A stretch of 15,659 nucleotides of DNA from Promethearchaeota archaeon (lineage in GTDB: Archaea; Asgardarchaeota; Lokiarchaeia; Sigyniarchaeales; SOKP01): contig JBHLMP010000015.1 of NCBI GenBank assembly GCA_048938025.1, forward strand, positions 52,070-67,728. The letters run 5' to 3'. This document shows positions 7,748 to 15,659 of the stretch, piece after piece (positions within the stretch are counted from its first letter, which is position 1; each line of letters opens with the position of its first letter). The notes under the pieces are model-generated. The model was not told where the DNA came from, made no database searches, and saw only the letters and a program-made list of their open reading frames with translations. The translations under genes and the position numbers were made by a program.

Positions 7748-9412
7748 ATGATAAGGAAACGATATCAACTAAATTGGATGTTTGAGTGTCCTGAAGCAGT
7801 GCTAACGTGTTCTATTCTAAGATGTCATAATAATAATTATTTAGTATTTGGTGGACATGATAAGACATTATATCTTATGGACGAGAAAATGAATATTGTA
7901 GATGATAGAGCATTTGATGGTTGGTGTCGATGTAGTTATGCTATTGATTTAGATGGAGATGGATGTGATGAGATTTTAGTTGGAGCAGGAGATGGAACTT
8001 TCATGGTTTTAAAGTTAAACATCGAGAAACAGAAGTTAGTAGGGGTTATGCGATATAGATCTACAGGGAAGGTAAATTGTTGTATTGCTGGCGATTTTAA
8101 TAGAAATGGGAAAGCAGATTTAATATTTGGAGGCGAAGATAAGACTCTTAAAATTTTTGATAGTATAAATTATAAAGAACCAAAATTCGTATTCTATTAT
8201 GATTCTTGGGTAACAGCTTGTACTTTGGGATATTTACAATTACCTGATAATAAAATACCTATATATGGATTATTAGTTGGTACTAAAAATGGTTCAGTTC
8301 AATTAATTCAAATTCAAGAAGGTAACCCTGATATTATTTGGCAAAAAGATTTTCATTCCCAGATTAATGATATTCAAGTTGGAGATGTTACAAATGATGG
8401 ATTTAATGAAATTATATTGAGTACTGATGATTCTAACATTAAAGTCCTTAACAGTGAAGGTGAGCTCTTGAAAGAGATCCCAATCGAAGAAGGGCGTCCA
8501 CTTTCCTTATTAATTGAAGATATAGACGGTGATAATGCCAAGGAAATTATTGCTGGATGTGCTGATGGCTCCTTAAAAGTTTTTCACAATCCTTCCTTGA
8601 ATTCTAAAGAGATTGAGTTAAAATGGAAAACAAAGGTATCCACTTCTATTCAAGATATCTGTTATCTTATGAGTACGGAACAAAATGTAAAACATATAGT
8701 ATTTGGGGGATATGATAGATCTCTACGAAATCTTACAGATTTTGAATGGGGTCAAAAACCTGTTTTGGAAATTCCTCAACAAATTCAAATTCCAGAAGTG
8801 CAAATAAGCGAAGAGAAGAAGATTGAAGAAGAGGTTAAAATAGAAAAAGTACCCACCAATATAAGAGAATATATTTTTAAAATCTTAAAAGATGTAGGGT
8901 TTTTGCAGGATTTAATTAAGGAATTAATGAAGTTAGGATATACTCATAGTGAGATTCTCGAAGAATTTGAAATAATGAGAACCCAAAAAATTATTACTTA
9001 TGAAAAGGTAGTCTATCCTGTTTGGAGTTTGCCTGGAGAAGAAAAACCAGAAAAAGTAGAGGAAATCGAAATTCCAACAGAGGAACCAAAAGTTATTGTG
9101 AAACCTATGGTTATTGAAGAAGTTGCTAAATCCGATAAAGAAAGATTGGTTGATGCACTTGAGCTTTATCCAGAAGAATCTGAACAAGCTGTTCCAGCTG
9201 TTAAACCTACTTCCACTCAACCATTAAATAATGTTATTATTGATTATTTAAAACAAAATAAAATTGTTCCAACTAAAACTAAATTTGTGGAAGATATAAT
9301 ACTGAAAGGATTTAGCAAAGATATTGTTGAGAAAGAAATCGAATCATTGAAAGAACAAGGGATAATTAGCTATTCACGAGGAACACCACGTGGTTGGAGT
9401 TTAGCTAAATAA
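7748..9412 (+). CDS. Seven-blade WD40/FG-GAP-type beta-propeller protein with two C-terminal winged-helix-like repeats
   Basis: Seven blade motifs: GGHDKTLYL, GAGDGTFMV, GGEDKTLKI, GTKNGSVQL, STDDSNIKV, GCADGSLKV, GGYDRSLRN. Four DxDGDG-like loops. Glu/Pro linkers separate two ~60-aa repeats ending IIxY..xWSL. No signal peptide. Confidence 0.8.
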   Translation: MIRKRYQLNWMFECPEAVLTCSILRCHNNNYLVFGGHDKTLYLMDEKMNIVDDRAFDGWCRCSYAIDLDGDGCDEILVGAGDGTFMVLKLNIEKQKLVGVMRYRSTGKVNCCIAGDFNRNGKADLIFGGEDKTLKIFDSINYKEPKFVFYYDSWVTACTLGYLQLPDNKIPIYGLLVGTKNGSVQLIQIQEGNPDIIWQKDFHSQINDIQVGDVTNDGFNEIILSTDDSNIKVLNSEGELLKEIPIEEGRPLSLLIEDIDGDNAKEIIAGCADGSLKVFHNPSLNSKEIELKWKTKVSTSIQDICYLMSTEQNVKHIVFGGYDRSLRNLTDFEWGQKPVLEIPQQIQIPEVQISEEKKIEEEVKIEKVPTNIREYIFKILKDVGFLQDLIKELMKLGYTHSEILEEFEIMRTQKIITYEKVVYPVWSLPGEEKPEKVEEIEIPTEEPKVIVKPMVIEEVAKSDKERLVDALELYPEESEQAVPAVKPTSTQPLNNVIIDYLKQNKIVPTKTKFVEDIILKGFSKDIVEKEIESLKEQGIISYSRGTPRGWSLAK

Positions 9413-9442: not shown

Positions 9443-9886
9443 TTATTCAAGAAATGCTTTTATCTCATCTAAAAAAGATTCGAATTGATTTAATTCTGTA
9501 AAATCGCTATTGTTATATCTTTGATTGAATAATTCTAAAATAGGTTCTGCAGTATCAAAAAACTTCTTTACTAATTTATCTGGATTCTTCTTTTTTTTGT
9601 CTATTAAGCCATACATAATAATTGGTTCCTTTAATCCACTATCGCTTGATTTTATATCTGAAATCTTGAAAATAAAAAGAATTGAACCAGATTCTAAATA
9701 TTCTAAGGACGTATTATTGAACGCGCTCTTGGCAAATGTATTTATTGCAGATATAAAAGCTCCTCTTAGATCCTTTGCAACACACTTTTCTTTTTGAGTA
9801 GGTATCTCTTTAACTATATAATTTATAAGCACAAAACCTCGAAATACTATTCCTAACTCATAGAGATATTCGCTTAAAGGTGCTAT
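9443..9886 (-). CDS. Stand-alone longin-like domain protein (~147 aa; proposed ATA start, track start GTG 9832)
   Basis: Frame is open upstream of 9832 to TAA 9913-9911 and adds APLSEYLYELGIVFRGF (first beta-strand). It continues with DLRGAFISAINTFAKSAF (helix 1), three strands and two C-terminal helices (LELFNQRY, NQFESFLDEI). Confidence 0.7.
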   Translation of the reverse strand: MAPLSEYLYELGIVFRGFVLINYIVKEIPTQKEKCVAKDLRGAFISAINTFAKSAFNNTSLEYLESGSILFIFKISDIKSSDSGLKEPIIMYGLIDKKKKNPDKLVKKFFDTAEPILELFNQRYNNSDFTELNQFESFLDEIKAFLE

Positions 9887-10044: not shown

Positions 10045-10731
10045 CTAAAATGAAAAAGAATTTCCTACACATATTCTTTGATATTGGTTAGGAAATTGTT
10101 CACGGATTGATTTTATATGTTGTGTACAATGACATGCTCCGATTAAATCAACCCCCTTTAAATAAGAAAACTTATTAAAACCATGAAAACCACCAAAAAT
10201 AGCTTTAATTTTACCTAATTTTTGTGCTTCTATAATAAATTTCTCTAACCCTGGATGAGCACAACCAACAGTTATTATAATTTCATTATTTTTAGTTCTT
10301 AAAAATAAAGCCTGTTCCTTTGTAGAATGCTGCCCAAATTGACCTGAGGAATATAGATTTTTTCCAATTATGGTTAATTCTGAAATACCATGAACCTTCG
10401 ATTCAGAAAATGCTTTTTTATATGGTGCTAAATTTGCTAAAGGGACATATATTTCAATTTTAGGGTTCAATTTATAGATTCCCTCTAAACCAGCAGCATG
10501 GTCGCCATGATTATGTGAGATTATAACTTTTTTAATGCTGGAGATATCAACCTTTAGCTTGTTAATATTATGAAGTAAAATCCTGCTATTTCCTCCTGTG
10601 TCAAAAAGTAAATAATTTTCCGTTGAAAAATTATAAATTAATGCTGAAAATCCAAATCCAGGTAAAAATCCTTCTTCTACACACTTATTATCGAATACAA
10701 TACTAATTTGAAAAGAATATTTTAAATTCAT
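10045..10731 (-). CDS. MBL-fold metallo-hydrolase, COG1237/DHPS-like family (228 aa)
   Basis: ISIVFDN, GFSALI, LLFDTGG, ISHNHGDH (HxHxDH), EQAL, GCAHPG, GGFH, CHCT. Start reassigned to ATG 10731 (MNLKY), 31 nt past the upstream gene's stop. Confidence 0.85.
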   Translation of the reverse strand: MNLKYSFQISIVFDNKCVEEGFLPGFGFSALIYNFSTENYLLFDTGGNSRILLHNINKLKVDISSIKKVIISHNHGDHAAGLEGIYKLNPKIEIYVPLANLAPYKKAFSESKVHGISELTIIGKNLYSSGQFGQHSTKEQALFLRTKNNEIIITVGCAHPGLEKFIIEAQKLGKIKAIFGGFHGFNKFSYLKGVDLIGACHCTQHIKSIREQFPNQYQRICVGNSFSF

Positions 10732-10762
10732 ATATTTTGAATAATGATTCTTTATTATAAAA

Positions 10763-11566
10763 TTACTGCTGTTTTTTAAGTAAAAAAATCGCATTATTAG
10801 GACATTTAGAGACACAAATACCACATCCAAAGCATCTAATGGAATTAAAATGCAATTTACCATCTTCCATAGTTCTTGCACCAAAATAACACCAATCGGA
10901 GCATTCCCCACAATTTGAACATTTTTTTGGATTGGTTTTAGCAACAAAATCGCTTTTGATCATCTGGGGAGATCCACTTGATAGGAATTTGTTTAAAACA
11001 ACACAACAGCAAGGACAACAATTACAAATTATATAATAAAATTGGGGATTCGGAAAATAAATTAATTGATGCACTAATCCTCGTTCATCACATTCTTTTA
11101 ATAGCTCCGTTACTCTCTTTTTTGATACTTTTTTTAAATTATAAGATTTATAAGGGATCTCATATAAAGATTTCCCAAAGCTAAGATGAATACAGGTATA
11201 AAGTGGATGATCACAATTAGGTTCTTCATATTTTCGTTGTACAGCTCTACAATAGCAATAACCTATACCACTTACATTTGAGCGTTTAATAATCTCCAAG
11301 ATTTCTTGACTGGGTAAAAATCTTGAATCTAAGTCAATATTTGTATTTAAAGGAACAACTTTTCCTCCCCATCGACCTTTTAAAAAATATTTATTAATGA
11401 TTCCCATTGAGTATATATTCAATTTGTTATCAATTCTACGCAATAACTCAAGGATATAAATTTCAAAAACTCCGAAAAGACTAGTTAAAATCTTACCTAA
11501 TGCACGAAATCTTTTAAGCATTTTATCTATAAGAGATTTAAATTTTCTAGCTGGTAACGCACTCAA
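10763..11566 (-). CDS. 4Fe-4S dicluster ferredoxin-domain protein with Cys-rich central domain
   Basis: CSNCGECSDWC and CFGCGICVSKCP ferredoxin motifs, plus CYCR..C..P..TC and ICNCCPCCC. Start is TTG 11566 or the downstream ATG (MLKRF). Confidence 0.85.
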   Translation of the reverse strand: MSALPARKFKSLIDKMLKRFRALGKILTSLFGVFEIYILELLRRIDNKLNIYSMGIINKYFLKGRWGGKVVPLNTNIDLDSRFLPSQEILEIIKRSNVSGIGYCYCRAVQRKYEEPNCDHPLYTCIHLSFGKSLYEIPYKSYNLKKVSKKRVTELLKECDERGLVHQLIYFPNPQFYYIICNCCPCCCVVLNKFLSSGSPQMIKSDFVAKTNPKKCSNCGECSDWCYFGARTMEDGKLHFNSIRCFGCGICVSKCPNNAIFLLKKQQ

Positions 11567-11709
11567 ATCTTAGCTTGTTTTTCTTTAAATTTCAATGATA
11601 GCAAATAATAAATTATATTTTACTTTATACTTGAATTTTAAGTATTCAATATAATCTAGATTAAGAAAGAGGAAATCAATTGGGATAGGGTATCAGATTA
11701 GGAAAGATT

Positions 11710-12798
11710 TTAGAAAAAATGATCTTTTACTATTTTATTTATAGGTTTAAATACTCTTAAATCACCTTTCCAGTCTTTGAGAACACTTGCATAAATTTTT
11801 TCAATATTTTCAATCAAATTTTTTAATAATATTCGAATAGAGATTAAACTACCTTTAGATATTAGCGCTCCATAAAGATATTTACCAGGTTGAATAATAA
11901 TTAACTTAGCTGGTTGTTCAATTACTGAAAATTCTTCTTTATTACTAATTCCCTCTAACATCATTTTTAAGCTTGTAATTTTTCCTGAAATTGAAGATTC
12001 ATAAAGATTTTCGTCTTTTGTTACAAATGATTTCTGGAAAATAAGTAAACCAGACTTATGAATAATAAATAGACTATCTAAATTTTGCTGCCACTCGTAT
12101 TCTGAAAATGAAGGGGTTGATATGAAAAATAAAAACAAGAAAATAATAGCACAAGTTTGCACGATATCTCCAATCATACGCATAATTAATCCAAAATTTA
12201 TAATCATTAAATCAGTAGTTAAACCAAATCCTGCAATAAATAGAATTATTCCAAATAGTAAACTAAGATATTTAAATATAAATCTTCCAAGTACTGGGTT
12301 TCTTTTAAATATCGAATATAATTTAAATGAATAAAAAATAAAGAATACTACAAAAATAGGCCAAAAAGTAAAAGATATAAATTGTGTAAGATCAATATTG
12401 ATAATTAATATTAGGAAGAAGGCGATTATATTAAGTGAAAAAATGACTGTAAAAAAATATTTTATTATGAAAATTTTATAGCTTTCAATAATATAGATAA
12501 AAATTAGGACACTAGTCATTAATGAGATATAACCACAATTTAAAAAAATCAGGCGAACAATTGAAGTTTCAACATAATAATCGCTTATAATAAAAAACAT
12601 CCACATGAAACTAAATCCAAGAAATAACCATATATAAGCTTTTTCCTGAAGGCTTCTTAGTTCTTTCTTATACTTATTAACCCTAAACAAAAAGGTTAAT
12701 GCTAATTCAAGTGATAAAAATGTGATAAGCCATTCATATACTAATAATAGATCTGCTAATGAACCGCTTAATGGAAATTGGAAAATTGTAAAATTCAT
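11710..12798 (-). CDS. Seven-transmembrane protein fused to a C-terminal longin-like domain
   Basis: About 7 hydrophobic segments in aa ~17-227, then LDSLFIIHKSGLLIFQKSF..ISGKITSLKMMLEGI..LIIIQPGKYLYGALIS..WKGDLRVF, a longin-type beta2-alpha-beta3-alpha2 pattern. Confidence 0.75.
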   Translation of the reverse strand: MNFTIFQFPLSGSLADLLLVYEWLITFLSLELALTFLFRVNKYKKELRSLQEKAYIWLFLGFSFMWMFFIISDYYVETSIVRLIFLNCGYISLMTSVLIFIYIIESYKIFIIKYFFTVIFSLNIIAFFLILIINIDLTQFISFTFWPIFVVFFIFYSFKLYSIFKRNPVLGRFIFKYLSLLFGIILFIAGFGLTTDLMIINFGLIMRMIGDIVQTCAIIFLFLFFISTPSFSEYEWQQNLDSLFIIHKSGLLIFQKSFVTKDENLYESSISGKITSLKMMLEGISNKEEFSVIEQPAKLIIIQPGKYLYGALISKGSLISIRILLKNLIENIEKIYASVLKDWKGDLRVFKPINKIVKDHFF

Positions 12799-12813
12799 TT
12801 TTTTGATTTGAAA

Positions 12814-13962
12814 TTAATTCAATTTTAATATCTTAACTATATCATTATTAAAATCTTCAAATATTTGTGGATATTCTCCTTCAAGATTTTCTAACTCTAT
12901 CAATATATTCTTATAAATATCGTTAAATTTATTCTTTACAGTATTTAAAAAATATCTCATACTGACCATTTCTTTTTTAACTAAAATACAAAAAATTAGA
13001 AAACTCATATTCTCTCCTCCATAGTCTAATAAGATTAAATTTTCTCCTTGTTGAACTTTTTCAATTTTAGATTCTTTTGATTTAGTGATAACTGAAATTA
13101 TACTTTCCATTCCAACGATCCCCCCTGGAAAGATTATATTATATGCTTGCAATGTATTTGAATCTTCCTTTATCTTTCTTTCATTGTTCCCTTTCCTTGA
13201 GAAATTATAATAATAAAGAATTTCTAAACGCCTACTATCAATTATGAATAACTTTACTAAGTTATCTTGCCAATTAAATTCCAAAAAAATTGGAAAATTA
13301 TAAATCGCATAGAATACAATCATTTGACCCAGAATCATTAAAGGATTATAAATTAAAGCTACAATTTGTTGTTGCATAGGGTTAAATAAATATGGATTTT
13401 TTTCTGCTCCAATTACAACCATCATGATAATCAAGATTTCTCCAAAAAATAATATTAATATTCTTCTCTTAACATTTCCAGCGGATTTTTGAATTAGTTT
13501 AATGTGAAAATATACCATAAAAATACTCCCTAAAAAAAGTGATATTATTACAAATACACCGTCTAGAATTATATTATCTATTATTAAAATGAGAAGTGAT
13601 AAGAAAAAGGTGATTATAGAGACTATTTTTGAGAAGTTTGTATTAATTAATTTATTGAAAGATTTTTGAGAAACAATCATTAAAAATGAAAAAGCACCAA
13701 AAAAGATTAGTATGTGTGATAAATTAAGTAGAAAATCATTTATTAATGAATTATTTATATAATAACTATTAATAGTACGAATTCCTATTCCAGTAAAACC
13801 AAAAAAATATAATAGTCCAAATGCTAATAAAAATTTATTTATCCCTAATTTTTCATCTTTTATTTGAAAGTACCTATAAAAGAAATACACACTTATTTGA
13901 AAAGAAAGAAGTAAAACTATAAAAACAAAGGGATAATGAAATGCTCTCAATAATTTCTCCAT
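12814..13962 (-). CDS. Seven-transmembrane protein fused to a C-terminal longin-like domain (paralog of the downstream gene)
   Basis: About 7 hydrophobic segments. Shared junction PIFLEFNWQDNLVKLFII vs PSFSEYEWQQNLDSLFII. Only 15 nt separate the two genes. Confidence 0.75.
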   Translation of the reverse strand: MEKLLRAFHYPFVFIVLLLSFQISVYFFYRYFQIKDEKLGINKFLLAFGLLYFFGFTGIGIRTINSYYINNSLINDFLLNLSHILIFFGAFSFLMIVSQKSFNKLINTNFSKIVSIITFFLSLLILIIDNIILDGVFVIISLFLGSIFMVYFHIKLIQKSAGNVKRRILILFFGEILIIMMVVIGAEKNPYLFNPMQQQIVALIYNPLMILGQMIVFYAIYNFPIFLEFNWQDNLVKLFIIDSRRLEILYYYNFSRKGNNERKIKEDSNTLQAYNIIFPGGIVGMESIISVITKSKESKIEKVQQGENLILLDYGGENMSFLIFCILVKKEMVSMRYFLNTVKNKFNDIYKNILIELENLEGEYPQIFEDFNNDIVKILKLN

Positions 13963-14134
13963 AATTCATTAATAGTTTTTTTATCAATAAATTTTTTATT
14001 CTCTTTACAGGAATGTAAATTGTATACTTTTATTTATTTTTTTAAGTAATATGATAATCAGCTAAAAGTTAAAATTAAATTCTTTTATATTTAATATTAT
14101 TCCTTTAAATTTCTTTACTTAGTAATAGATAACA

Positions 14135-14140
14135 GAGGGA
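14135..14140 (+). promoter_or_regulatory. Shine-Dalgarno-like site before ATA
   Basis: GAGGGA-attagg-ATA-tca; same geometry as GAGGGGA-tttgg-ATG at 15371-15385. Confidence 0.5.
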
Positions 14141-14146
14141 ATTAGG

Positions 14147-14683
14147 ATATCAATTGATTTAGCATTCAAAATAAGTGTTTTTGGCGATTCTGGAGTTGGT
14201 AAGACTTCATTAATTAATCGATTTATGACAAACAAATTTGATTTAGATGTTGGAAAGACTATGGGAGTAAATATTTCGACAAAAAATGTAGTTATTGAGA
14301 ATTTAAGAGTTGTACTTCAAATTTGGGACTTTTTAGGGGAGGAACGTTTTAGAAGCATTATTAAAACTTATGCTAGTGGAACCTTTGGAGGTATCTTTAT
14401 GTATGATATTACAAGTAAAAATAGTTTGATGAATTTAAATGAATGGATAGCCCTTTTTCATAATACATTTCCAAGTACCAAAAAAAAAATACCAATTATC
14501 TTAGTTGGAGGAAAATCTGATCTAAATAATGAAAGAGAAATAACAAAAGAAGATGCTTTATCTATATTAAGATTACATAATATGTTTACTTTTATTGAAT
14601 GTTCATCAAAAACAGGTGAAAATATTGAAGAAGTTTTTTTTTCTTTGACTAATAAAATAATGAAAATTAATGGATATATTTAA
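14147..14683 (+). CDS. Rab-like small GTPase (Ras superfamily), ~178 aa; proposed ATA start (the track start at 14225 omits the P-loop)
   Basis: In-frame upstream of 14225: SIDLAFKISVFGDSGVGKTSLINRF (G1). Then KTMGV (G2), LQIWDFLGEERFRSI (G3), FMYDIT, LVGGKSD (G4), ECSSKTG (G5). Confidence 0.9.
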   Translation: MSIDLAFKISVFGDSGVGKTSLINRFMTNKFDLDVGKTMGVNISTKNVVIENLRVVLQIWDFLGEERFRSIIKTYASGTFGGIFMYDITSKNSLMNLNEWIALFHNTFPSTKKKIPIILVGGKSDLNNEREITKEDALSILRLHNMFTFIECSSKTGENIEEVFFSLTNKIMKINGYI

Positions 14684-14854
14684 CCTTTTAAGAAGATTTG
14701 CCCGATGTTGAAAGCTATATACAATAATAGATCATCAGACATTGTTTAATTGTTGTCTTTGTTAGGAGTTCGAATTTTTTTTATAAAGTATAAATTTTTA
14801 TATTAAATTTTATCTATAAAATAATTAAGATTGAATATAATTTAGGTGACTAAA

Positions 14855-15361
14855 ATGTCTGAAAAAGATATATTAAATAAGGCTTTTGAATTAGGAAAAA
14901 AGTATGAAATGAAATTTACAGGATGTGCTCAAACAACTATTGCTGCTATTTTTGAAGCATTAGGGATTTGGAATGAAGATGTATTCAAAGCAGCCAGTGG
15001 ATTAGCTGATGGTCTGGGATTAACAGGAGATGGGTCATGTGGGGCTTTAGTGGGGGCATCTATGGTTATAGGATACCTTTTTGGAAGAGAACACAAAGAT
15101 TTTAAGGATATGTATAAACCAAGGAAATCCTATGCTCTCGTTAAACAACTTCATGACCAATATGTAGAAAAATATGGGTCATGTCGATGCTTCGATGTGC
15201 AAACTAAATTAGTGGGAAGAACTTACAACCTCTGGGATGAAAAGGAGTATGAGGAAGCATTTGAATCTGATATGATACATCATTGCTCCGATGTAGTAGG
15301 AACTGTTGCAAAAATGGCAACTGAAATTATCTTGAATAATGAATTTATTCCTAAGAACTAA
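14855..15361 (+). CDS. C-GCAxxG-C-C family putative redox-active protein (168 aa)
   Basis: GCAQTT, GLADGLG, SCGALVG, YGSCRC, HCSDVV. AGGTGA SD (14844-14849) contains the track's GTG and precedes ATG 14855 by 5 nt. Confidence 0.85.
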   Translation: MSEKDILNKAFELGKKYEMKFTGCAQTTIAAIFEALGIWNEDVFKAASGLADGLGLTGDGSCGALVGASMVIGYLFGREHKDFKDMYKPRKSYALVKQLHDQYVEKYGSCRCFDVQTKLVGRTYNLWDEKEYEEAFESDMIHHCSDVVGTVAKMATEIILNNEFIPKN

Positions 15362-15382
15362 CTAATTCTAGAGGGGATTTGG

Positions 15383-15659
15383 ATGGTTAAAGATATTAAC
15401 TCACGATTTGATGAAAAAATTAAAGATTTAGAAGAAACTTTACCAACACTAGATACTAATAGGAATTGTGCTGCCCTCACTCTAACAAATATTCTTGAAA
15501 CTCTTGGATTGGGCAATATTTATTTTCACAACCTTGCTATTCCATTGTCAGGCGGTTTTGGTGGTTTTAAATCATTAAAAGGCTGGAAAGGTCCTTGTGG
15601 TGCAGTTTGTGGAGGATGTGCGGCAATTGGTATAATAATGGGAGGACAGGAAAAAATAA
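15383..15659 (+). CDS. Second C-GCAxxG-C-C family protein, truncated by the window end; absent from the ORF track
   Basis: Manual translation MVKDINSRF...NRNCAALTL...PLSGGFGG...GPCGAVCGGCAAIGIIMG..., with GAGGGGA SD 5 nt upstream and no stop before the edge. Confidence 0.85.
   Translation, partial: MVKDINSRFDEKIKDLEETLPTLDTNRNCAALTLTNILETLGLGNIYFHNLAIPLSGGFGGFKSLKGWKGPCGAVCGGCAAIGIIMGGQEKI

Follow-up and report, generated by a model that had tools for sequence, protein, structure and literature searches.

Tandem seven-helix proteins with C-terminal longin-like domains are genomically coupled to a Rab-like GTPase in a lineage of Asgard archaea

The stretch of DNA described here, which we call the window, comprises 15,659 nucleotides (nt) of an Asgard archaeal genome (Promethearchaeota archaeon, contig JBHLMP010000015.1). 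It contains a cassette of three genes: two in tandem encode seven-helix membrane proteins with a C-terminal longin-like domain, proteins A and B, and the third, divergently oriented, encodes a Rab-like small GTPase (Table 1). The window is the last 15.7 kb of a 67.7-kb contig and is AT-rich (GC 0.23-0.35); the genome measures 3.5 Mb and is 97% complete, and relatives of A and B carry the source names Promethearchaeota/Lokiarchaeota and other Asgard labels. The coordinates of the open reading frames (ORFs) bear out the layout given in a preliminary description of this DNA, with two seven-transmembrane (7TM) paralogs 15 nt apart and head-to-head with a small GTPase. A and B are probably on one transcript. 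The shared intergenic region of about 185 nt that was also reported measures 184 nt if the GTPase starts at the ATA codon at 14147, but it holds only with that start.

Table 1. Coordinates of the cassette and its parts within the window.
Feature	Position	Strand	Description
Protein A gene	12814-13962	-	ORF, 382 amino acids (aa); 7TM at about residues 10-220 and C-terminal longin-like domain; upstream member of the tandem
Protein B gene	11710-12798	-	ORF, 362 aa; helices 13-227, junction helix 232-239, longin 240-362
A-B spacer	12799-12813		15 nt between the stop of A and the start of B
Longin domain of B	11713-12081	-	Residues 240-362, β-β-α-β-β-β-α-α
C-terminal domain of A	12817-13257	-	Residues ~236-382; probable longin, by homology to B
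TM7-longin junction motif of B, PSFSEYEWQQNL	12079-12114	-	Family alignment
TM7-longin junction motif of A, PIFLEFNWQDNL	13258-13293	-	Family alignment
Divergent intergenic region	13963-14146		184 nt; conserved AT-rich blocks (alignment with three orthologous loci)
Rab-like small GTPase	14147-14683	+	178 aa, ATA start; Pfam Ras 4.3e-42
Segment missing from two collinear relatives (overlap)	11544-14774		Contains B, A, the intergenic region and the GTPase; blastn/tblastn

By hydropathy, A and B have seven hydrophobic segments each, and lysine and arginine are concentrated in loops 1, 3 and 5, so that both proteins should lie with the N-terminus out and the C-terminus in, the topology that had been expected of them. 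The AlphaFold2 (AF2) model of B, built from 30 sequences (predicted local distance difference test, pLDDT, 84.8; predicted template modelling score, pTM, 0.80), has seven long helices, a short helix at the junction motif and then a β-β-α-β-β-β-α-α domain. BLASTP aligns the two proteins over the C-terminal 152 columns only (E 5e-7, 24% identity). When the profiles of the two families (14 sequences for A and 30 for B) are compared with hhalign, the alignment extends across the membrane part (311 columns, 97.8%, E 1e-12), and A and B are therefore paralogs over their full length, as had been proposed. Database relatives number 15 for A (the window's own two entries included) and 30 for B, and no Pfam or NCBIfam family matched either protein. 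The junction between the last helix and the C-terminal domain, described as P-x-F-x-E-[FY]-x-W-Q-x-N-L, is indeed matched by PIFLEFNWQDNL in A and PSFSEYEWQQNL in B; the signature of the family is only its core, P-x-[FLIMV]-x-E-[FYLWH]-x-W, present in 93 of 146 full-length family proteins and in none of the 10 other own-genome proteins with a related longin that were checked. In the family alignments P229, F231, E233 and W236 of B are invariant or nearly so, and P224, F226, L227, E228, F229 and W231 of A are invariant.

The C-terminal domain of B is a longin. In the AF2 model its strands span residues 240-247, 252-257, 291-295, 298-304 and 308-314, with helices at 267-284 and 319-335 and further helices towards the C-terminus. 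Exhaustive structural comparison of residues 239-362 places Sec22 first (3egd_C, Z 13.4, root-mean-square deviation (rmsd) 2.3 Å, 115 of 137 residues aligned), followed by a CPLANE subunit (7q3d_C, Z 12.8), VAMP7 (12.7), AP2 sigma (12.6), synbindin (12.3), sedlin (12.2), the SRX domain (10.6-11.3), Ykt6 (10.8), a Lokiarchaeal Roadblock-Longin protein (8yqg_B, 10.6) and Mon1-Ccz1 (10.2-10.3). As to a roadblock fold, the domain of B has the short helix 232-239 ahead of its first strand, and no roadblock chain is named among the 50 structural matches listed, those of longin type being longin domains. With Foldseek, all matches of the C-terminal part of B are longins or roadblocks, at weak E-values (best 1.8e-3), with MglB at rank 9 and LAMTOR chains among them; against PDB profiles, the B profile has a match to yeast Trs23 (E 0.013). 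In Pfam, neither A nor B reaches the gathering threshold of a longin family, and the matches within the B family, all weak, are to Clat_adaptor_s in one of 30 members (E 0.00096) and, below threshold, to Robl_LC7 in five of 30 (best E 0.0054), while none of the 14 members of the A family has even a weak longin match. The longin topology, which is seen directly in the model of B, can be extended to A through the homology of the two domains, and the C-terminal domain of A is thus probably a longin too. The longin domains announced in the preliminary description are in this way confirmed for B and made probable for A. Atlas look-ups, which serve as leads only, gave a score of 0.88 for a free longin encoded elsewhere in the window and below 0.8 for the C-terminal part of A, with clusters in which Fuz_longin_1 is found in 34% and 22% of members.

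The third gene encodes a Ras-superfamily GTPase (its Pfam Ras match covers 161 of 162 positions) whose closest solved sequences are Rab11, Rab14, Ypt31/32, Rab4 and a Thorarchaeota Rab (1.9e-34 to 6.8e-32). About 11 residues precede its P-loop, and its motifs read GDSGVGKT (G1), DFLGEE (G3), GKSD (G4) and SSK (G5); the catalytic Gln of Rabs in G3 (DxxGQ) and their Asn in G4 (NKxD) are both missing, and a Glu replaces the former. The clade of 10 GTPases found beside pairs of this type shows no variation at D61, G64, G122, K123 and D125 and almost none at F62 and E65. The protein ends in KINGYI, and none of the 10 clade members has a C-terminal Cys; the GTPase is thus nearest to Rabs and lacks the Cys needed for prenylation, as the preliminary description had it. 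In the genome, Glu follows DxxG in 12 of 87 GTPase-like ORFs, against Gln in 46, and in the Glu-bearing sequences listed G/S-K-x-D replaces N-K-x-D; these ORFs appear to form a Rab-like subfamily of some size whose catalytic site is altered.

The start of this gene deserves some attention. From the in-frame stops (TAG TAA TAG) up to the P-loop its reading frame is devoid of ATG, GTG and TTG, and an ATG appears only beyond the P-loop, at 14225; seven of the 10 orthologs (that of the window and six others) have ATA or ATT at the start, a few codons ahead of the first β-strand, and no canonical start. On these grounds we set the start at ATA 14147, from which the 184-nt spacer follows. An element, ACAG[AG]GGG...AAGGAT[AT]TCA, is conserved there in the window and the three closest orthologs, the start codon following ACAG[AG]GGG...AAGG, and one ortholog has ATT at the position where three others carry ATG. 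Four of 85 GTPase-like ORFs of the genome have no canonical start before the P-loop. The free longin of the window presents a similar picture: neither it (9884-9886) nor the GTPase (14147-14149) has an ATG, GTG or TTG compatible with a complete fold, and both have apparent ATA starts after a purine-rich element. For the free longin this is the ATA at 9886 after GGTGGATC; most of its orthologs have ATG, TTG or GTG there and three have ATA, and a start at GTG 9832 would, according to its model, cost the first strand and part of the second. The loci that document these starts, with orthologs carrying ATA or ATT where others have ATG or TTG, are L040-L044, L051, L103, L106 and L107. A literature search listed nothing on such starts in Asgard archaea.

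A Glu in place of the catalytic Gln means that this GTPase may need help to hydrolyse GTP, and the longin pair could provide it as a GTPase-activating protein (GAP), that is, as an off-switch comparable to MglB for MglA or to FLCN-FNIP, Nprl2-Nprl3 and C9orf72-SMCR8. The sub-threshold Robl_LC7 matches of the B family and the presence of MglB among the Foldseek matches point the same way, and longin GAP complexes are the subject of PMC12290439, as far as its available text goes. However, the topology and the best structural matches of B are those of a longin and not of a roadblock, and an invariant Arg that might act as a finger is absent from both longins: the best candidate, R245 of A, is present in nine of 14 sequences, and the other conserved basic positions are Lys. 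A GAP that works through an Arg finger is therefore unlikely. The more general idea is only weakened by this, since an MglB-like GAP needs no finger, and we hold it to be quite improbable.

How tightly the three genes belong together was examined at 20 loci from the window's family and one neighbouring family, which we call related, and at 20 loci from more distant families, these 40 being the top of each score range among about 125 places matched. The gene of the A type precedes that of the B type in 19 of the 20 related loci, the twentieth overrunning its contig. Without counting the window, a GTPase gene lies within 300 nt of the pair in nine related loci, in three different orders: divergent, as in the window (three), downstream on the same strand (two) and upstream on the same strand (four). 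At two other related loci the GTPase gene found 0.9-3.4 kb from the pair is of a different clade, and at nine there is none. The loci with an adjacent GTPase span four of the six genera sampled, and the GTPase is the commonest neighbour family overall (12 of 41 loci). By chance, one of the 87 GTPase-like ORFs of the window's own genome would be found this close (within 300 nt) to a 1.1-kb segment placed at random in it with p = 0.062. In the distant Asgard families the GTPase is adjacent in none of 20 loci (one has a GTPase about 5.8 kb off), and the gene is single in 15 and in tandem in five. Other neighbours in those lineages (DinB, a major facilitator superfamily protein, DUF362, an ATP-binding cassette ATPase and a flavoprotein) owe their presence to local synteny between kindred genomes and did not point to a function.

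In a tree of the 10 adjacent and three nearby GTPases with the 45 best-scoring domains of the genome (about 41 others, more distant or shorter, were left aside), the 10 adjacent ones form one clade with support 100/89, within which only a single paralog of the genome falls. In loci L040-L042 the cassette stands in different genomic surroundings. Two genomes of the same genus, whose gene order follows that of the window and whose nucleotide identity to it is about 89%, lack the cassette through different indels. In G008 positions 10929-14774 have no equivalent and the flanks abut, with a run of T on both sides of the junction; most of a 4Fe-4S protein gene is absent there along with the whole cassette. 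In G171, a stretch of 746 nt occupies the place of positions 11544-15405, which in the window contain B, A, the GTPase and the first of two C_GCAxxG_C_C genes. The end points of the two indels differ, and what they have in common is the absence of B, A and the GTPase. In all five same-genus genomes without the pair (94-100% complete), the best GTPase match has 44-49% identity, to be compared with 45.7-47.3% for paralogs within the window's genome and 52-60% for the GTPases beside the closest pairs; matches at the level of paralogs mean that the GTPase ortholog is missing from 5/5 of them. Five genomes that have the pair and no adjacent GTPase contain many GTPase paralogs at 215-244 bits with no gap among them, a spread of scores that singles out no ortholog.

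The three genes are thus genomically coupled, by a link that goes beyond chance but is limited to a lineage. The synteny survey supports the adjacency that the preliminary description had put forward, by a single GTPase clade, three gene orders and joint presence and absence, but confines it to one family-level lineage. Could this adjacency be functionally meaningless, with the pair acting alone or with other partners next to a member of a very large GTPase family? The 87 GTPase-like ORFs in 3.5 Mb, the many loci without an adjacent GTPase and the kinship of the related genomes would allow it. Against it stand the single clade to which the adjacent GTPases belong, the persistence of adjacency through three rearrangements, the cassette in other surroundings, the two different indels that each remove all three genes, and the absence of the GTPase ortholog from the genomes without the pair. 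We consider this explanation very unlikely.

The membrane part of the two proteins is harder to place. The best structural match of the bundle of B is ACER3, a membrane hydrolase (Z 13.5, rmsd 4.0, 190 residues aligned), followed by a designed GPCR-like (G protein-coupled receptor) fold (Z 13.0), GPCR chains (Z 10-12, with adhesion and class C receptors at about 12) and microbial rhodopsins (about 11-11.7). Z values of 10-13.5 are common for helical bundles, and we therefore read this one as a generic seven-helix bundle and not as a member of the GPCRs. The epithet 'GPCR-analogous', by which the pair had been introduced, is right about the seven helices and their orientation, N-terminus out and C-terminus in, but the GPCR matches stay within that common range and no Pfam family was matched. 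Charged or polar residues are conserved inside the membrane in both proteins (E22, E31, E52, D73, E105, R207 and Q214 in B; E37, N42, R62, S82, H83 and H153 in A), and these, together with the conserved junction helix, are the only features that suggest a sensing role for the bundle. Hydrolases of the ACER3/PAQR group have a Ser/His/Asp zinc-site pattern; a hydrolase of this type was considered and set aside, no paired-His pattern being seen among the conserved residues (A has the adjacent S82-H83 and, as a single further His, H153). Five variants of the family, of 525-562 aa (L122-L126: G138:C61, G182:C71, G265:C8, G005:C14 and G294:C278), have 8-11 hydrophobic segments, with 10-11 in four of them; ahead of one C-terminal longin, they are matched repeatedly by the membrane part of the profile. 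These variants, in none of which a GTPase domain was found, may carry a duplicated membrane domain in a single chain.

The longin of B has further relatives in the same genome, where its profile finds 11 other places, for ten of which the ORF was located. Two are free longins of 137 and 135 aa (B profile E 2.4e-6 and 7.8e-6), which score 29.0 and 25.9 bits with Pfam Fuz_longin_1, the MON1/FUZ/HPS1 family, whose cut-off is 26.1. The same type of longin is found in two receptor-like proteins of 772 and 780 aa, after an N-terminal and a second transmembrane segment, in a protein of 1566 aa, in an 11-TM protein of 741 aa, in a PAS-PAS-HisKA-HATPase kinase of 753 aa, and in three soluble or single-segment proteins of 244-283 aa. 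Genes in which this longin is C-terminal are found at C15:27280-29595, C66:40911-43250, C72:72046-76743, C12:47209-49431 and C69:21248-23506. A receptor followed by a longin is therefore a recurrent design in this genome, which suggests that this type of longin is a cytoplasmic output or adaptor module. The set agrees with the longin fusions to two-component domains described in the accessible text of Liu et al. (10.1101/2020.10.19.343400).

These relatives also bear on the direction of the signal, which could run from the GTPase to the membrane: the seven-helix proteins would then be effectors (a channel, a transporter or a membrane enzyme) switched by the GTP-bound GTPase through their longins. 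There is a precedent in the signal recognition particle receptor (SR), in which SRβ-GTP binds the longin (SRX) domain of SRα, and SRX is among the matches of the B domain. The best match of the bundle is a membrane hydrolase and ion-pumping rhodopsins match as well, charged and polar residues are conserved inside the helices of both A and B, and the long variants look transporter-like. However, all bundle matches are of a quality common among helical proteins, the paired-His motif of the hydrolases is not seen in A, and an output module agrees better with the finding that receptor-like proteins and a PAS histidine kinase of this genome end in the same type of longin. We think this direction of flow unlikely.

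The window contains a further longin, the free one at 9443-9886(-), which had been suggested as a third partner of A and B. Its model has the β-β-α-β-β-β-α-α order (pLDDT 80) with longin and roadblock matches at weak E-values, and no sequence similarity to A or B was detected. It is present in all 71 genomes of the family, those without the pair included, on other contigs than the pair, and lies near a 7TM pair in only one of 20 loci. Its regular neighbour, tail to tail in 28 of 30 loci, is a gene for a β-propeller of 554 aa (7748-9412(+); Pfam Beta-prop_BBS7, BBS2_Mid and Itfg2). With a BBS7/ITFG2-like β-propeller as partner, and present where the pair is not, the free longin belongs to another module, and the suggestion of a third partner is not supported. 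The pairing of a β-propeller with a longin recalls assemblies of the CPLANE or BBSome type. A BBS7/ITFG2 Asgard cluster is listed in the available part of a 2026 preprint.

What, then, could A and B do together with the GTPase? In Mon1-Ccz1, TRAPP, Ragulator, MglB and SRα-SRβ, the GTPase binds to a platform made of a longin or roadblock dimer. Our proposal is that A and B together constitute a longin platform embedded in the membrane, at which the cognate GTPase is docked and regulated, a reading that we see as about evenly poised between right and wrong. In this scenario A and B would sit side by side in the membrane, with their longin domains forming a longin-longin platform onto which the neighbouring Rab-like GTPase would dock. 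Since the GTPase itself lacks a lipid anchor, it is the platform that would bring it to the membrane. It would also control its nucleotide state, most likely as a guanine nucleotide exchange factor (GEF) or as a receptor specific for one nucleotide state, and changes in the polar seven-helix bundle might be passed on via the junction helix. The conserved tandem of two paralog types, with single-copy forms in other lineages, points to an A-B heteromer: a single or tandem gene in distant lineages and A followed by B in the related loci are what one would expect if a homodimer had evolved into a heterodimer. That the proteins bind one another directly, which way the regulation goes (GEF, anchor or GAP) and whether any ligand is sensed are matters of presumption, and a GEF activity of A and B is putative. 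Prediction of the complex of the longins of A (222-382) and B (226-362) with the GTPase gave 0.82, 0.81 and 0.81, values that speak neither for nor against binding, as an unrelated chain 1 still gave 0.73; controls with the GTPase partner replaced gave 0.01 and 0.07.

Several observations weigh against a platform dedicated to this GTPase. An adjacent GTPase is lacking at 11 of the 20 related loci and at all 20 distant ones, so the family does not need one next to it. The related genomes are kin, and their counts are not independent; the independent events are the three gene orders and the two different indels. The bundle has no specific structural relative, which makes a sensor only one of the options for it. 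The other longin genes of the genome, the 10 related ones and the free longin, are not beside GTPase genes, except for that of the 1566-aa protein, at 975 nt. In MK-D1, finally, genes for GTPases and for longins do not as a rule share operons, according to the available text of PMC10933270. The platform can be extended to a complete receptor-to-small-GTPase pathway of the kind first suggested for this locus, in which the heteromeric seven-helix receptor would sense, in its polar bundle, a ligand or the state of the membrane and, by way of the conserved TM7-junction helix, turn its longin dimer into an exchange factor for loading and recruiting the lipid-free Rab-like GTPase; this full version we find improbable.

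Of 1.84 billion cluster representatives, 1448 match the B profile at E<=1e-3 and 177 do so at E<=1e-30; most are about 360 aa long and matched end to end. A match at E<=1e-20 is present in 93 of 301 sampled genomes of the phylum; with the window's own genome excluded, these are 30 of 68 genomes in its family and 44/76, 4/5, 5/7 and 4/19 in four others, and in its own genus the family is present in six of 21. The A/B family is Asgard-specific, and A and B are two specialised paralogs within it. No longer forms of the B family (666-2000 aa) were found at E<=0.001, which is weak evidence, and the search for related loci with protein B returned one locus, of an 'uncultured archaeon'. We found no description of a 7TM-longin fusion or of the cassette in the portions of the literature at hand, and the supplementary tables of Asgard surveys may list the family. 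The available part of a 2026 preprint (10.64898/2026.10.28.762692) names, without going into detail, a 'class C GPCR' cluster and, among the Asgard families from Eme 2023 or Liu 2021, '7TM proteins'. The architecture of the cassette is new, and it adds a new and testable case to the known theme of longins and GTPases without yet amounting to a new kind of system.

Comparison with known systems helps to see what is new. The tri-longin Rab GEFs (Mon1-Ccz1, Fuzzy-Inturned/CPLANE and HPS1-HPS4) also combine two paralogous longin proteins with a Rab-type GTPase; CPLANE and Mon1-Ccz1 are among the structural matches of B (Z 12.8 and 10.2-10.3), and the sister free longins of the genome come to the region of the Fuz_longin_1 threshold. 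A and B differ from them in having one longin per subunit instead of three (362-382 aa in total), in staying below the Pfam longin thresholds, and in being fused to a seven-helix domain, whereas the GEFs are recruited peripherally. Ragulator-Rag and MglB-MglA likewise dock a small GTPase on a dimer of the longin/roadblock superfamily, and the platform of Ragulator is held at the membrane. However, the topology here is that of a longin, with C-terminal helices, and not of a roadblock, the anchor is an integral 7TM domain in contrast to the lipidated LAMTOR1, and the GTPase is Rab-like and neither Rag- nor MglA-like. The 7TM-RGS (regulator of G protein signalling) proteins of plants and protists follow the same logic as A and B, with a seven-helix domain and a cytoplasmic C-terminal GTPase regulator in one chain, but here the regulator is a longin and not an RGS domain, the putative target is a small Rab-like GTPase, not a Gα, and no sequence relation was found. 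The longin SNAREs (Sec22b, VAMP7 and Ykt6) and the SRX domain of SRα with SRβ provide the best structural matches of the B domain and have, like it, a membrane-tethered longin. The longin of the SNAREs is N-terminal and followed by a SNARE motif and one TM helix, whereas here it is C-terminal to seven helices and no SNARE motif is seen; in SR it is the GTPase that is the membrane-anchored partner. Among Asgard archaea, the surveys of Liu et al. (10.1101/2020.10.19.343400) and Tran et al. (PMC10933270) report, in their main texts, many longins, longin fusions to GTPases and two-component domains, and an operon of a LAMTOR1-like protein, a Rab-like GTPase and a DENN protein. The words 'transmembrane' and '7TM' do not occur in these main texts, and their supplementary tables may list the family.

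Some features of the flanks complete the description of the window. Downstream of the GTPase lie tandem C_GCAxxG_C_C genes for putative redox-active proteins (14846-15361 and 15383-15658), the second of which overruns the contig end. On the other side, a metallo-β-lactamase-fold ORF (10045-10947(-)) and the 4Fe-4S ORF (10763-11566(-)) overlap by 185 nt as listed; the start of the former is probably further downstream, since several orthologs align from residue 64 or 78 only. A 22-nt direct repeat (11520-11541 and 14807-14828, 86% identical) flanks the three genes of the cassette. Its position differs from the end points of both indels, which led us to discard it as the footprint of a mobile element, and it may be due to chance in AT-rich DNA.

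Asgard genomes encode GTPases of the Rab-, Arf- and Rag-like kinds by the dozen, and longin and roadblock proteins in similar abundance. Most regulators have not been matched to their GTPases, since linkage of the genes is the exception (PMC10933270, available text). The cassette offers a concrete and testable pair of a GTPase and its candidate regulator, marked out by three gene orders, joint presence and absence, and a single GTPase clade. The conserved ATA and ATT starts mean that gene callers restricted to ATG, GTG and TTG would truncate or overlook the GTPase. A longin platform built into the membrane bears on how anchorless small GTPases could be placed before the eukaryotic systems of prenylation and organelle identity. 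If the seven-helix part senses, the cassette would be a receptor-to-small-GTPase route without heterotrimeric G proteins; such a receptor, if real, would be a functional counterpart of the coupling between GPCRs and G proteins, built from the longin and Rab parts that eukaryotes later used for organelle identity. The combination of receptor and longin would then be a general output module, shared with the single-pass receptor-like proteins, the 11-TM protein and the PAS histidine kinase of the same genome.

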